In this document: positions 7,077 to 15,539 of the stretch, one piece after another
How the letters are laid out: each line of letters opens with the position of its first letter
How positions within the stretch are numbered: position 1 is the first letter of the stretch
Source: Rickettsiales bacterium
Lineage (GTDB): Bacteria > Pseudomonadota > Alphaproteobacteria > UBA8366
Assembly (NCBI GenBank): GCA_002724555.1
Contig: PBOZ01000059.1
Coordinates: 66,414-130,413, forward strand
Length of the DNA stretch: 64,000 nucleotides
Reading direction: 5' to 3'
The notes under the pieces: model-generated
The model's database searches: none
Seen by the model: the letters and a program-made list of their open reading frames with translations, nothing else
What the model was told of the DNA's origin: nothing
Translations under genes and position numbers: made by a program

Positions 7077-7787
7077 TCAGAGCGCAGAGGTATAACGCTC
7101 AAATTTCCGGGTACAGATGTCCTTCAACTGTGCTGGCATGTAGGAATAGTACCGGCCTTTCTGCGATTGCGACGTTGAAGTAAAGCATCCATTGTTTTTA
7201 AAATCACTGAGCGCGTTGATCGCTATGTCTATGGTCAATTCGGTTGCCGACCGTCGAAGATGGGATAAAGGCATACCGCGTTGAAGTGGAACTGGCCGGC
7301 GGTCGATAATACCGCCTGCATCAAGTTCCGGTTCAACTCTGTGCATCGTCATGCGCAAGGCGTTGAAGTCGCCGTGGAATAAAGGCCAGAGGTGGCAGTC
7401 GAGGCCGCGGTAAGCCTCAGGATCGCCGTTATGAAAATTGGCGCTTCCATCTGGGCATTGGTCTAAAACTGCCTTGGAAAGGCGCCCCGTCCCGTAAACC
7501 AGCAAGACATCAGGTTTCAAGCTTCGCAACACCGTAATGGCTTCTGGATCGTTTAGATTTTCGAATGATTTAACCTTTGCTATTGCATCGAATGCGGGAG
7601 CGTTTCCATCGTACCAATGATCTCGTTCATGGGCCATACGTGCCTCATCGAGTGGATGGGCTGTTGGATATGGTGGTGGTGGATCACGCGATTCGATTAG
7701 AACCTGAGCGATTTGAAACTGCTCCTGAATTTTTTCAACGAAATAGCGTCGTCGAACAGCGCCTGTTGTGAGGACAACGATCTGCAT
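7077..7787 (-). CDS. Formyltransferase-like protein (Formyl_trans_N fold only)
   Basis: 236 aa. PDVLLVYGTGRLSKAVLD...ANFHNGDPEAYRGLDCHLWPLFHG...MHRVEPELDAGGII mirrors the Fmt/PurN/ArnA N-domain pattern (N-x-H...RG...D-x-G). There is no C-terminal Fmt domain. Its stop abuts the stop of the convergent permease gene (7076/7077). Confidence 0.6.
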   Translation of the reverse strand: MQIVVLTTGAVRRRYFVEKIQEQFQIAQVLIESRDPPPPYPTAHPLDEARMAHERDHWYDGNAPAFDAIAKVKSFENLNDPEAITVLRSLKPDVLLVYGTGRLSKAVLDQCPDGSANFHNGDPEAYRGLDCHLWPLFHGDFNALRMTMHRVEPELDAGGIIDRRPVPLQRGMPLSHLRRSATELTIDIAINALSDFKNNGCFTSTSQSQKGRYYSYMPAQLKDICTRKFERYTSAL

Positions 7788-7918
7788 TAATTAAAATTAG
7801 TTTGACGGGCCATACGGAGATGTCGTGCATATTTTGTTACCGATCTTTCTATAGATATGGCATATGGTTAACAAATTCATACGGTGTGCAGAAAAATCGT
7901 ATTCTGCCACTTTGTTTT

Positions 7919-7928
7919 GGGGGGGGGG
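7919..7928. repeat. G10 homopolymeric tract in a divergent promoter region
   Basis: Ten consecutive G at 7919-7928, read directly. It lies 26 nt upstream of the ATG at 7955, between a TTGTTT (7912-7917) and a TATTTT (7934-7939) hexamer. Confidence 0.95.
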
Positions 7929-7954
7929 ACAATTATTTTTGATCCAGGTGTCAC

Positions 7955-12319: not shown

Positions 12320-12437
12320 CCTGTATACCCGCAGTTTCAGCTAATCCTTGCGGATTATGGATTCAGAACAGATACACATTAGTTACAAAAAACCCAAATT
12401 TTCCGGCTAAAACAAAGGCTAACTAGAAGAATTCAGA

Positions 12438-15400
12438 CTATTCCGAGCTTTGGATCTGCGCTGTCATATTGTATAGCCGGTCGCTCATCACCCGCGCAAT
12501 ATGCGCAGCGAAATGCGGACTGCCTTCTAATAGCTCTAGGAACATTTCTTTCTTTAATTCTAAAACAGTGACGTCCGAATGTGCGCGGACTGTCGCAGAA
12601 CGCGGTTTGGTACTTAAGAGAGCCATATCACCTACTAGCTCATTCTGGTCGAGGTGGCTAACGATAATCTCTTCGTCGCCTTCACCGACTATAATATCAA
12701 CGGCACCCTCAAGAATGACATAGGCCGCATTACCAGTGTCACCCTGATGGAAAAGGTCTTCACCCTTTGAATAGGTCAGCCTTTCGCTTGTGAAAGCAAG
12801 TAACTTGAGGCGTGAGGCGTCCATTTCGGTAAAGAGCGGGACTTGGCCCAAGGCGGAAATTTCGGCGTTCAGAAGTGTACCGCCATGTTCATCTTCGACA
12901 TCGACAACATCCACGCTTTCGTCGCTCACATCGAGAGGGGTAGCCTCGGCAATACGTTCTTCGATACGACCATTACGGACGACCAAGACCTGATCAAACT
13001 CGCTAGTATCTGGCATCTCGCTGTCAATCCAAATGAGTGTTGATGTTGGCAGTAAAATGCAGAGTTTTCGCCGTATGCGATCTCGTGTTTCGCGATCATG
13101 AGCGCTTAGCGCTTCGTTGATAACAAGGATCTCTGGACGTTTAATAAGGCTTCGAACCAAGGCGATGCTCTGTCGTGCAGCGAGCGGTATGCGACGTCCG
13201 CCGATGCCGACGTTGAAATCAGCAGCAGTTAGGATGATTTCATCAGTCAATTCCATTTCGTCAAGCACTTCTCGCAATACCGTGTCGACTTTCTCTTCTG
13301 CGTGCGGTCGGCCAGCATTTACCCGTCCCATGACCAAGTTTGAGCGAAGCGGCAGCCGTTCGTTAAACTTTTCAGGGTCGAAGAACGCAATTGCTTCATT
13401 GCTATCGTCTTCGAATTGATCTCGGAATTTCCGTCGTGCTTCCAAAATTTGAGACTGCATCTTGTCGTCTATATGCCCAAGTCGATGTCGTTCGACAACC
13501 AATTGACATGTGAGAGAAATCAACCTTGCGGTATCTTCTTCGTTGAGAACGTCATTACCGTCGCGTTTTGCGAGAGCAACAATGCGTTTTAACTCCTGAA
13601 GTGAATCGTCGTCGACAAAACTGTATTCTTCAAAGATCGGGTCGTCGGCAGACATACCGTCAAACATATCTATAAGGGTTGCCGCGGTATGCATTCCGAT
13701 GTCGCGGAAGCGATTTGTAAGGTCACATTGGTTGAGCACGGAGAGGATTGCTTCGTTCTCAGCTAAATGGTCGATGGCGAATTTGTCGTCGATTGCTTCT
13801 CCAAAAATCAGATTGGCTCCGACCGTTGCGCTTACATTGTATTTTTCAAAGTCGAATGGATGAATGAGGTCAGCCAACTCCGAATCCGACTGCATTTTCT
13901 TTAAAATAGACTGCCGGGCTTGAACAATTTTTGCTGGTAAATCAGCCTTAATGTCCGGATCAATTGTCATATTCATGGCACGGCCATACATGAAATCGTC
14001 GAGTTCCACGGCGCGGAGTGTTTCGTGCCACCAGCTTGATAGCTCATCTTGGTTGGAGACACCGACGTCATCTAAATTTATCCATTCGGCATCTATTGCA
14101 TGTGCAACATTGCCTGAAGAAACCGCTTCTTTTCGATCTGTTATACGCTCTGGCGTGTCATCAGGTGTAATGACAGGCATATGTTTTAGGCCATAGAAAA
14201 CATTGTACCCAATGGTACCGTCGAATACGTACGAATCCGGACCGGCATACCCCACCCGTCGCCCAATGACCGCTTCATGCATACCTGATAGATTCTGGTC
14301 GGCGATGGAAATTCGCCCTTGGGAAGGTTGAATAAGCCGTGTCAGGATATAGGAAAGATTATCTCGGCCACTGCCACCCGCAACAATAGCTATACGGCTG
14401 CCTGGCGCTGCGTCAAAGGAAATACTATCAAGCGACTTGACACCGTCTTCATCTGCAATCGAGACGTTGCTAAGTGAGACATTGCCGGCAAGCGACGGAA
14501 TTGTGTCTGGTCTGCCAGTAATCCCTAAGTCTTCGGGGATCATATCTGCAGGATCGAATTGCTCCATAACCTGCTGATATTTGATTTTTGCATCCATCAT
14601 ACGTTGATAATATTTGAGCAATTCTTTCCAGGGCTGCATCAACTGGCTGTAGGCGCCAAGCACTGCGACCAGCTGGCCGATATCAAGATTGCCCCGCAGG
14701 ATAAGGACGCCGCCAACCGAGTAGAAAAGAAGCGGTGTTAGTTTTAACAGAAAGTTGTTCAGGAACTTTAGGAATGCTTTGCCCTGATAAATTTTCATTC
14801 GAACTTTGAAAATGCCCGAAAGGTGGTGTGTGAAATCTGCGAGTGAGTACGCTGACGTATCATGTGTATGTATATCATTAATACCTGACACGGCTTCGCT
14901 AATACGTCCCGCGACACCTCGGATGCGGACGACCCGCTCTTTTGCGAGCAGGTTAATTTTCTTTTGCAGTTTTGGGATGATGTAGGCTTGCAACGGTATT
15001 ATCGAAATACTGGCAAGGCCCATTATTGGATCTTGTATGAAAACAAATAGCAGCACTGTCAACATCGTGCCACCTTGGAAAAGGGGAAGTTCAACCGCAT
15101 CCGCAAAAAATTGACTGAAAGGTTCTACCTCGGCGGTGATCATCGAAGTGACTTCGCCTTGAGAGGTTTTCTGGAATTGTTTTAGTGGAAACCGGTGAAT
15201 TCGCTCAAACAGTTGAAAGCGTAAACGCCGGAGTAATCGTTCGGAGGTAATCCCTTTAAAGATAAATAGCGACATCGTAATGCCGCCGTTGACGATTAAA
15301 AGTAAAAGAAAGAGAAAACATAGGGTCAATAGGTATTCGGTGTTGTCGAATTCAATGCCGAGGTACGTTCGTGGGAAAGCTTCCCCATCTGATTTCGATC

Positions 15401-15539
15401 CGAGGGCATCGTTAACGATTATTTTTGGTAATTCGAGAGCATAGTAAAGAAAGGGGAACGAAGCGAACGTCACGCATAGTATTACGAGTTGATATCCCTT
15501 ACTGTACCGCCAAATAAATCCGTATAGACCCTTTTCCAC
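12438..15539 (-). CDS. ABC-exporter-type membrane protein with a degenerate, expanded NBD and a C-terminal cyclic-nucleotide-binding domain
   Basis: 1033 aa. GTG start with a GAGGG SD. The parts are:
- aa 1-330: six-helix ABC_membrane-like TMD.
- aa ~350-865: NBD-like region.
- aa ~897-1015: cNMP-binding domain (FHQGDTGNAAYVILEGAV...GDMALLSTKPRSATVRA).

The NBD-like motifs are non-canonical:
- Walker A is AGGSGRDN.
- Signature is GIGGRR.
- Walker B is ILVINEA.
- H-loop position is LIWIDSE. Confidence 0.85.
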   Translation of the reverse strand: MEKGLYGFIWRYSKGYQLVILCVTFASFPFLYYALELPKIIVNDALGSKSDGEAFPRTYLGIEFDNTEYLLTLCFLFLLLLIVNGGITMSLFIFKGITSERLLRRLRFQLFERIHRFPLKQFQKTSQGEVTSMITAEVEPFSQFFADAVELPLFQGGTMLTVLLFVFIQDPIMGLASISIIPLQAYIIPKLQKKINLLAKERVVRIRGVAGRISEAVSGINDIHTHDTSAYSLADFTHHLSGIFKVRMKIYQGKAFLKFLNNFLLKLTPLLFYSVGGVLILRGNLDIGQLVAVLGAYSQLMQPWKELLKYYQRMMDAKIKYQQVMEQFDPADMIPEDLGITGRPDTIPSLAGNVSLSNVSIADEDGVKSLDSISFDAAPGSRIAIVAGGSGRDNLSYILTRLIQPSQGRISIADQNLSGMHEAVIGRRVGYAGPDSYVFDGTIGYNVFYGLKHMPVITPDDTPERITDRKEAVSSGNVAHAIDAEWINLDDVGVSNQDELSSWWHETLRAVELDDFMYGRAMNMTIDPDIKADLPAKIVQARQSILKKMQSDSELADLIHPFDFEKYNVSATVGANLIFGEAIDDKFAIDHLAENEAILSVLNQCDLTNRFRDIGMHTAATLIDMFDGMSADDPIFEEYSFVDDDSLQELKRIVALAKRDGNDVLNEEDTARLISLTCQLVVERHRLGHIDDKMQSQILEARRKFRDQFEDDSNEAIAFFDPEKFNERLPLRSNLVMGRVNAGRPHAEEKVDTVLREVLDEMELTDEIILTAADFNVGIGGRRIPLAARQSIALVRSLIKRPEILVINEALSAHDRETRDRIRRKLCILLPTSTLIWIDSEMPDTSEFDQVLVVRNGRIEERIAEATPLDVSDESVDVVDVEDEHGGTLLNAEISALGQVPLFTEMDASRLKLLAFTSERLTYSKGEDLFHQGDTGNAAYVILEGAVDIIVGEGDEEIIVSHLDQNELVGDMALLSTKPRSATVRAHSDVTVLELKKEMFLELLEGSPHFAAHIARVMSDRLYNMTAQIQSSE

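Follow-up and report, generated by a model that had tools for sequence, protein, structure and literature searches.

In the secretion systems gated by cyclic di-GMP (c-di-GMP), such as BcsA-PilZ, Alg44, PelD and BgsA of Sinorhizobium meliloti, glycan enzymes are combined with a translocation part that possesses a receptor for the messenger, and the messenger-making enzyme is often encoded nearby. The ABC exporter NdvA (ChvA) exports a soluble glycan made in the cytoplasm, cyclic β-1,2-glucan. Proteins with an exporter-type architecture have links to cyclic nucleotides as well: TIGR03797-type proteins have an N-terminal cyclic nucleotide-binding (CNB) domain and canonical nucleotide-binding domains (NBDs), and CFTR, which has one competent ATP site, is controlled indirectly via phosphorylation of its R domain by protein kinase A (PKA). 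To our knowledge, very few effectors of cyclic mononucleotides besides CRP-type regulators are known in Alphaproteobacteria; S. meliloti possesses more than two dozen cyclases. Here we analyse a stretch of 64,000 nucleotides (hereafter the window) of contig PBOZ01000059.1 of an alphaproteobacterium (Rickettsiales bacterium, assembly GCA_002724555.1), in which genes for glycosyltransferases (GTs), a methyltransferase-fold protein, a substrate-binding protein (SBP)-dependent importer and an ABC-exporter-fold protein with a CNB domain lie together. The region 1062-15539 is one copy of a real, widely conserved and uncharacterised proteobacterial module.

Extent and gene content of the module

An earlier note, made from the letters of the window, had described six genes at 7077-15539 as a compact unit with a formyltransferase-like gene at one end, followed by a tight three-gene GT operon, a methyltransferase-like gene and the gene of the ABC-like protein. 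All six open reading frames (ORFs) match the ORF listing exactly, and the gene calls of two further assemblies of the same marine population agree with them. The operon is as tight as proposed, with a gap of 9 nt between the first two GT genes (GT28a and GT4) and an overlap of GT4 with the third (GT28b) of 44 nt (TTG start) or 26 nt (public gene call), and Pfam returned Formyl_trans_N, Glyco_tran_28_C (twice), Glycos_transf_1, ABC_membrane, ABC_tran and cNMP_binding. However, while the co-occurrence of these genes holds beyond this genome, the unit is larger. Because GT loci elsewhere carry the same Opp/Dpp-type importer, the four-gene importer at 1062-7076 belongs to it, and the unit in the window spans ~1062-15539 rather than 7077-15539. 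The formyltransferase-like gene sits between the importer and GT operons. The features are:

1062-2948, plus strand: fused double ATPase of an Opp/Dpp/Gsi/Yej-type (PepT family) importer, 628 aa
2945-4885, plus strand: family-5 SBP, predicted periplasmic, with signal peptide, 646 aa (Pfam SBP_bac_5)
4909-5907, plus strand: importer permease 1, 332 aa (Pfam BPD_transp_1 and BPD_transp_1_N)
5904-7076, plus strand: importer permease 2, 390 aa (Pfam OppC_N and BPD_transp_1)
7077-7787, minus strand: formyltransferase-like protein (FT), N-domain only, 236 aa (Pfam Formyl_trans_N)
7833-7878, no strand: conserved intergenic block, candidate operator or promoter, near-invariant across the window and two related loci (L003, L001)
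7955-9175, plus strand: GT28a, GT-B glycosyltransferase, predicted cytoplasmic, 406 aa (Pfam Glyco_tran_28_C)
9185-10441, plus strand: GT4 glycosyltransferase, 418 aa (Pfam Glycos_transf_1)
10398-11624, plus strand: GT28b, GT-B glycosyltransferase, 408 aa (Pfam Glyco_tran_28_C)
11636-12319, minus strand: predicted class I S-adenosylmethionine (SAM)-dependent methyltransferase-fold protein (hyp227), 227 aa (AlphaFold 2 model and Foldseek)
12438-15539, minus strand: ABC-exporter-fold protein with degenerate NBD and C-terminal domain binding cyclic nucleoside monophosphates (cNMP), 1033 aa
13140-14282, minus strand: triplicated helical-subdomain region, residues 420-800 of the ABC-like protein (hhalign repeats)
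12441-12857, minus strand: CNB (CAP_ED) domain, residues 895-1033 of the ABC-like protein (Pfam cNMP_binding)

Conservation of the module

Homologues of the 1033-aa ABC-like protein were used to fetch 80 genome loci (denoted L001 and so on where a single one is meant), in which the window genes and recurrent neighbour families were mapped; three rhizobial plasmid loci and the window itself bring the number of scanned sequences to 84. Linkage was counted in the 47 of the 80 loci that have full 10-kb flanks on either side of the ABC-cNMP homologue. GT genes are present in 33 of these 47 loci (GT28a and GT4 both in 32), and importer genes in 26, all of them among the 33; none of the 47 has the importer without GTs. 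Co-occurrence outside this genome, on which the earlier note had made its proposal depend, is therefore found, in Alphaproteobacteria and in some gammaproteobacterial metagenome-assembled genomes (MAGs). In 29 loci the ABC-like protein includes the CNB domain, while in 41 the domain has an ORF of its own, adjacent and downstream; for the split-type loci with full flanks, GTs are present in 28 of 29. When the neighbourhoods were seeded a second time, with GT28a homologues in place of the ABC-like gene, the importer, a stand-alone CNB protein, a cyclase, the ABC gene and methyltransferases (TylF or Methyltransf_17) were recovered.

The genes have stayed linked in Rhodospirillales, Hyphomicrobiales and gammaproteobacterial MAGs, in at least six different orders. 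The window and rhizobia share one order, the importer followed by the GT genes. The commonest form, found in Rhodospirillales, is a single operon (GT28a, GT4, a second GT4 named GT4b, a histidine phosphatase, GT28b, fam5, fam9, importer) that is divergent from the ABC, CNB and Methyltransf_17 genes. Here, fam5 is a CE4/DUF2334-like protein (its profile matched DUF2334 and Polysacc_deac_1 weakly and gave no useful match against the PDB) and fam9 a small membrane protein; the histidine phosphatase is present in 34 loci. In L046 and L053 the importer lies across the ABC gene from its usual side, with all parts in one compact block in L053; in Azospirillum soli it is located between the ABC gene and GT28b, and L040/L057, L059 and L041 represent further orders.

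The module is also found on pSymB of S. meliloti, at ~826-845 kb in strains 1021 and 2011, and on plasmids of Rhizobium leguminosarum. Its flanks on pSymB (L081/L082, 1-4100 and 18357-19106) encode a nucleotide-sugar dehydrogenase, a class III cyclase, a polysaccharide lyase and an FkbM methyltransferase, genes that may hint at a uronic-acid-containing, methylated glycan. In a Competibacteraceae MAG (L087, 7602-9962), a 786-aa MscS-type mechanosensitive channel is encoded directly 5′ of GT28a-GT28b-importer, a possible hint of an osmotic role.

The ABC-like protein and its link to cyclic nucleotides

Domain calls were made against Pfam cut-offs and equivalog calls against the curated NCBIfam cut-offs. 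The ABC-like protein matches ABC_membrane (E 1.8e-26), ABC_tran (split/partial) and cNMP_binding (E 3.3e-21) in Pfam, aligns with 335 PDB exporter chains (phmmer) and has P-gp, Atm1, MsbA, TM287/288 and Sav1866 as its top Foldseek matches. It possesses the B-family (type IV) exporter fold, with a six-helix transmembrane domain (TMD) followed by the NBD, and many residues of the exporter-type TMD are invariant across the family. The best NCBIfam match is the lipid A flippase MsbA (TIGR02203, 165.9 bits versus a cut-off of 602); the glucan-exporter model NF010178 scored 102 (versus 733) and TIGR01192 78.7 (versus 585).

A catalytic NBD is recognised by GxxGxGK[ST], hhhhDE, LSGGQ and the H-loop His. 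In the window protein, Walker A reads GGSGRDN, Walker B ILVINE (hhhhNE) and the signature IPLAARQ, and the H-loop His is lost (TLIWIDSEMP). GT-linked relatives are degenerate in a similar way; two of them (L067, L068) keep the Walker B DE together with a degenerate Walker A (GGGR). Canonical GKS and DE occur together only in Thalassospira-type members, which have no GT genes nearby. Furthermore, all 80 family members aligned share an apparent insertion of ~315 residues between the Q-loop region and the signature, the profile of which matched nothing in Pfam or the PDB. Residues 420-800, modelled with a predicted local distance difference test score (pLDDT) of 80-90, contain three copies of a Q-loop/'NxxFG'/helical-subdomain segment, the last of which leads into the degenerate signature; hhalign gave 97.7% for repeats 2 and 3 (E 1.4e-12), 73% for repeats 1 and 2 (E 3e-5) and 78% for repeats 1 and 3 (E 2e-5). 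What looks like an insertion is thus a set of extra copies by which the helical subdomain of the NBD is triplicated.

The CNB domain (PF00027, 75.5 bits versus a cut-off of 27.5) is predicted to be a cyclic-nucleotide binder of the CAP/PKA type. Its phosphate-binding cassette (GDMALL...PRSATVRA) is intact; at least 90% of the sequences in alignment A1 have Arg985, and all have Ala986. Where the domain is separate, its ORF encodes ~150 aa (e.g., L081 17710-17809, L014 12629; range L013-L083) and shares the reading frame of the ABC gene in 21 of the 41 loci, behind one to three stop codons. Programmed read-through from the NBD into the CNB domain was considered and rejected, since the frame is the same in only 21 of 41 loci, many of them close relatives, and several stops intervene; the separation looks like plain gene fission or fusion. 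A domain that is fused in some loci and separate in others is a classic fusion/fission signal, which implies its physical partnership with the ABC-like protein. The stand-alone CNB protein of S. meliloti is Q92VD3 in UniProt. On the rhizobial plasmids a class III adenylate/guanylate cyclase heads the gene string of the module and belongs to its operon, both in R. leguminosarum and in S. meliloti; a class III cyclase is also found in 9 of the 80 genome loci. The fusion/fission of the CNB domain and the in-cluster class III cyclases strongly support cyclic-nucleotide control of the module. Of the idea that export or flipping is gated by cyclic AMP (cAMP) or cyclic GMP (cGMP), put forward in the earlier note, the nucleotide control stands, but ATP-driven, cNMP-gated export is not the simple reading because the catalytic ATPase motifs are lost.

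Glycosyltransferases

GT28a is the most conserved protein of the cluster, with 55-89% identity to its full-length counterparts (51 of the 84 scanned sequences), a mean column identity of 66% in alignment A5 and the motif HDTFGLGHLRR. It contains Glyco_tran_28_C (28.3 bits versus a cut-off of 22), and its profile matched no solved structure in the PDB. The homologue in S. meliloti carries the UniProt name RedA (Q9X6W3); a literature search for redA, the coverage of which was mostly open-access, found no paper, and an older description is possible. GT28b (Glyco_tran_28_C, 42.6 bits) is a distant paralogue of GT28a with 22% identity. Compared with solved structures, its profile (A6) matched the GT1 enzyme YjiC over the full length (E 1.5e-11) and MurG with E 1.8e-9, so by sequence comparison GT28b appears at least as close to GT1 as to MurG. 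The MurG equivalog scores of the two GT28 proteins are only 17 and 26.7 (cut-off 250), and a GT28 N-terminal domain was found in neither. The third enzyme belongs to GT4 (PF00534 Glycos_transf_1, E 1.9e-34; PF13692, E 3.6e-31), with EpsE as its best NCBIfam match (142 bits versus 400), ahead of WcaL (90 versus 538) and MshA; its gene is present in 50 of the 84 sequences. Localisation of the GTs, FT, the methyltransferase and the SBP was read from transmembrane (TM) and signal-peptide features of the proteins. The GTs, FT and the methyltransferase have no TM segment, the GTs no amphipathic segment either, and all of these enzymes are predicted to be soluble and cytoplasmic.

Methyltransferases and the formyltransferase-like protein

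The 227-aa protein gave no sequence match in Pfam, NCBIfam or the PDB. However, it belongs to a family of ~1,900 proteins, and its AlphaFold model (pLDDT 93.7) retrieved class I SAM methyltransferases as top Foldseek matches, TehB and NodS among them (E 7.5e-9 to 2e-8); the model had 814 PDB matches at E ≤0.001, and the 50 best listed were almost all methyltransferases. Motif I (ILGGWYG) precedes the sequence FDID. The model thus assigns to the protein a class I SAM methyltransferase fold, and the label "methyltransferase-like" used in the earlier note is justified at the fold level.

Genes of the hyp227 type are present in 11 of the 80 related loci, in addition to the window and the S. meliloti pSymB loci. 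In the window the gene is downstream of, and co-directional with, the ABC-like gene, and it lies directly 3′ of the ABC gene in L001-L003 and L005-L011. This slot is nearly always occupied by a methyltransferase, either hyp227 or Methyltransf_17 (PF12692; L013-L075), both being present in L053 only. As hhalign of the hyp227 family against a Methyltransf_17 member found no homology (probability 0.6%), we treat the two as analogous; this looks like a non-homologous replacement at one position.

FT contains Formyl_trans_N (PF00551, 33.3 bits versus 26.1), aligns to residues 56-154 of the ArnA formyltransferase and retains N-x-H (ANFHNG) and the Asp (ELDAGG) of the catalytic Asn-His-Asp triad. However, it has GDPE at the position of the SLLP folate motif, lacks the C-terminal domain and scores 37.5 versus 777 against the ArnA equivalog. 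FT is predicted to be a sugar (ArnA-type) N-formyltransferase-like protein. As only 4 of the 80 related loci (L001-L003, L053) carry it besides the window, FT is not core; it is a lineage-specific accessory, inserted in antisense between the importer and GT operons. A formylated or methylated product had been suggested for this cluster. Methylation is upheld by the methyltransferases that recur across loci (hyp227, Methyltransf_17, TylF or FkbM).

The importer

All parts of an importer of the PepT family (Opp/Dpp/Nik/Gsi/Yej) are contiguous in the window: a family-5 SBP, two BPD_transp_1 permeases and ATPases with an oligo_HPY tail. The ATPases are fused (ABC_tran twice plus oligo_HPY, E 2.6e-59), with 612 bits to GsiA and 501 bits to YejF in NCBIfam, each under its equivalog cut-off, and the gene adjoins GT genes in 32 of the 84 scanned sequences. 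Permease 1 shares 62-97% identity with the corresponding proteins of related loci, and the start of permease 2 overlaps its end by 4 nt. The SBP (SBP_bac_5, E 4.5e-54) begins with a hydrophobic stretch followed by A-x-A, as in a signal peptide. Its best NCBIfam equivalog is Opp4A (78 versus a cut-off of 650), and its nearest solved structures are 5ipw (E 1.5e-74), the pectin-binding SPH1118 (E 1e-67), the alpha-galactoside-binding AgpA (E 2e-26) and a chitin-oligosaccharide binder. The nearest characterised relatives, i.e. SPH1118, AgpA and the chitin-oligosaccharide SBP, bind oligosaccharides (PMC7055323, PMC9314435).

Intergenic features and neighbouring genes

In the divergent FT/GT28a intergenic region, a block of ~45 nt (7833-7878; TTTTGTTAC.GA.C.TTC.ATAGATATG.CATATGGTTA) differs very little between the window, L003 and L001, in contrast to its diverged flanks, and is a possible operator or promoter. 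A G10 homopolymer at 7919-7928, the sole run of G8 or more in the 64-kb window, is located 27 nt 5′ of the GT28a start. Phase variation at this tract was rejected, as its length is the same in three assemblies and it is unconserved in L003 and L001. A promoter scan found fewer sites than in shuffled controls and a terminator scan a slight excess (22 versus 16.7 ± 4.8); both are uninformative. No Rfam match was found in positions 1-20000 of the window.

Upstream of the importer, a 182-aa ORF (297-845, plus strand) with an Asp/Asn beta-hydroxylase domain (PF05118, which we take to be the family that includes LpxO and OlsC) is unconserved in related loci. On the other side, the cluster is flanked by a gene for a 1168-aa oxidoreductase (16159-19665, minus strand; POR, TPP_enzyme_C and DUF6537), presumably indolepyruvate-ferredoxin-oxidoreductase-like. 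As it is syntenic in the closest relatives L001-L003 only, it lies outside the module.

Proposed function and alternatives

We propose that the module makes a small methylated glycoside in the cytoplasm, lets it pass the inner membrane under cNMP control and takes it up again through the importer (probability roughly 0.5). In this pathway, the soluble GT-B enzymes GT28a, GT4 and GT28b and the SAM methyltransferase would build a small, methyl-decorated glycoside or oligosaccharide without a lipid-carrier pathway, and in the lineage of the window the sugar-formyltransferase-like enzyme would also take part. The product would be passed across the inner membrane by a homodimer of the B-family ABC-exporter-fold protein despite its degenerate ATPase motifs, at an activity set by cAMP or cGMP on the CNB domain, whether fused or encoded next door. 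The SBP-dependent importer, with its intact ATPases, could then recover a periplasmic oligosaccharide, be it the product, a fragment or a precursor. Gene content, conserved linkage, fusion and fission of the CNB domain, motif degeneracy, the triplicated NBD subdomain, the methyltransferase fold and the sugar-binding relatives of the SBP are observed; what the product is, which way it is transported and how the cNMP regulates the system we infer from the genes.

Several observations weigh against this proposal. With both ATP sites of the homodimer degenerate, the ABC-like protein may transport nothing and could be a sensor or scaffold. Twenty fused-type homologues (in Thalassospira, Marivibrio, Pacificispira, Curvivirga and others) have neither GT nor importer genes within 10 kb, so the ABC-cNMP protein is not obligately tied to these enzymes; conversely, in L088 the GTs and the importer are kept along with a stand-alone cNMP protein, and no ABC gene lies within 10 kb. 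SBPs of the PepT family bind mostly peptides, and the natural ligand of SPH1118 itself is uncertain. Compared with the commoner form, the window is short of a second GT4, a phosphatase and a CE4-like gene, and it contains no cyclase. Finally, no product, substrate or phenotype is on record for any member.

Some of these points would fit a pathway in which an imported oligosaccharide or peptide-like compound is altered by the GTs and the methyltransferase for storage, salvage or detoxification, with the ABC-like/cNMP protein as a sensor or regulator. The importer is co-operonic with GTs in most loci, a polysaccharide lyase adjoins it in S. meliloti, the ABC-like protein has degenerate ATPase motifs, and L088 has the stand-alone cNMP protein without the ABC gene. 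We nevertheless consider import followed by modification unlikely: the many invariant residues of the exporter-type TMD are unexpected for a pure scaffold, there is little precedent for glycosylating imported nutrients, and synthesis, export and re-uptake is a common logic for secreted small molecules. A glycolipid route, with the GT28s and GT4 glycosylating diacylglycerol or another lipid at the inner leaflet and an MsbA-like protein flipping the product, seems distinctly improbable. The Glyco_tran_28_C domain of both GT28 proteins, MurG among the solved relatives of GT28b, MsbA as the best NCBIfam match of the ABC-like protein and the LpxO/OlsC-type hydroxylase fragment at 297-845 point towards it. 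Yet the MsbA score is far under its cut-off, and GT28b gives a better, full-length match to YjiC, a soluble GT1 enzyme acting on small molecules. Amphipathic and TM segments are absent from the GTs, and a flippase whose ATP sites are dead would probably fail to drive lipid up a gradient; the linked SBP importer and the histidine phosphatase would, moreover, be left unexplained.

That the cluster is a fragment of an ordinary lipopolysaccharide (LPS)-core, O-antigen or exopolysaccharide (EPS) locus, with the rest elsewhere in the genome, is very improbable, even though GT4 is weakly similar to EpsE and WcaL, FT resembles ArnA, and a nucleotide-sugar dehydrogenase adjoins the cluster in S. meliloti. 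Wzx, Wzy, Wzz, Wza, Wzm/Wzt, a phosphoglycosyl transferase, a GT2 synthase and nucleotide-sugar genes are all absent among the ORFs at 297-19665, just as had been noted before that no part of the Wzy-, Wzm/Wzt- or synthase-dependent pathways was to be seen; these pathway parts are not among the recurrent neighbour families of the 80 loci either, and GT9/GT30 core enzymes are seen neither there nor in the window. The compact set recurs in many orders without these genes, and all equivalog scores are far under the cut-offs; the ABC-like protein therefore does not qualify as MsbA or NdvA, the MurG and ArnA equivalogs are not reached, and the module does not qualify as a classical polysaccharide pathway. 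The published polysaccharide clusters of S. meliloti that a literature search retrieved, as well as the paper on the Clr regulon, concern other pSymB loci (PMC5498481). No characterised match to the module was found in the literature, covered mostly outside subscription journals, in agreement with the earlier statement that no characterised system of this composition could be named. Chance adjacency without a functional unit could be argued from the 20 homologues without partner genes and from the patchy distribution of FT and hyp227; it is effectively refuted by the linkage data, i.e. the persistence through at least six orders and several bacterial groups, the GTs in 28 of 29 split-type loci and the return of the same partners upon seeding with GT28a.

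Returning to synthesis, controlled passage and re-uptake of a methylated glycoside, a bolder version would make the ABC-like protein the founder of a new functional class: a channel or facilitator without ATP hydrolysis, gated directly by cAMP or cGMP, for a methylated glycoside, with the importer closing a loop of release and recapture. We regard this version as doubtful. If true, the CFTR idea would have a bacterial counterpart, gated by the cNMP directly and tied to an unrecognised widespread soluble glycan. In any case, the module provides a candidate non-transcriptional cNMP effector, a membrane ABC-fold protein that goes together with dedicated GTs, methyltransferases and an importer. 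Structurally, this protein is of interest for its exporter fold with degenerate motifs, for the triplication of its helical subdomain and for a CNB domain that is fused in some loci and separate in others. Since the module occurs not only in abundant marine lineages but also in rhizobia, Azospirillum and Inquilinus, which are genetically tractable, the proposal is directly testable.

Comparison with known systems

The staphylopine system Cnt, with its NikA/Opp-type importer, likewise combines biosynthetic enzymes, an exporter and a family-5 SBP importer, and weak matches to CntA, CntD and CntF were found. However, the scores are under the cut-offs save for generic ATPase similarity, the enzymes here are GTs and methyltransferases rather than opine synthases, and no link to metals is evident. 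The cyanobacterial NHLP/bacteriocin exporters (TIGR03797-type) resemble the ABC-like protein as ABC half-transporters fused to a CNB domain (E 1.9e-25), but the score is 89 versus 709, and they occur in the context of peptide natural products, whereas the present protein is found with glycosyltransferases.

The ABC-like protein resembles CFTR in its exporter-type TMD, in the degenerate chemistry of its ATP sites and in being controlled through a cyclic-nucleotide pathway. The parallel is no more than an analogy: in the bacterial protein both sites of the presumed homodimer are degenerate and the cNMP would bind directly. NdvA/ChvA and MsbA also have a six-helix ABC_membrane TMD followed by an NBD in one polypeptide, and NdvA, as an exporter of a soluble glycan, is the closest functional analogy; the four degenerate motifs, the triplicated helical subdomain and the attached CNB domain set the ABC-like protein apart from them, as do scores far under the cut-offs.

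With the c-di-GMP-gated secretion systems the module shares the combination of glycan enzymes with a putative translocation part bearing a messenger receptor, and in rhizobia, L053 and L089 a class III cyclase takes the place of the messenger-making enzyme encoded nearby. Unlike in those systems, the messenger would be a cyclic mononucleotide and the receptor is a CAP-type CNB domain instead of PilZ or a GGDEF I-site; the domain scans of the window revealed neither PilZ nor GT2. The membrane part has an ABC-exporter fold instead of a GT2 synthase channel, the enzymes are of the GT-B type instead of processive GT2, and an importer is included. The module is best seen as a variant of glycan biosynthesis and transport under second-messenger control, with a structurally novel ABC-like protein at its centre.

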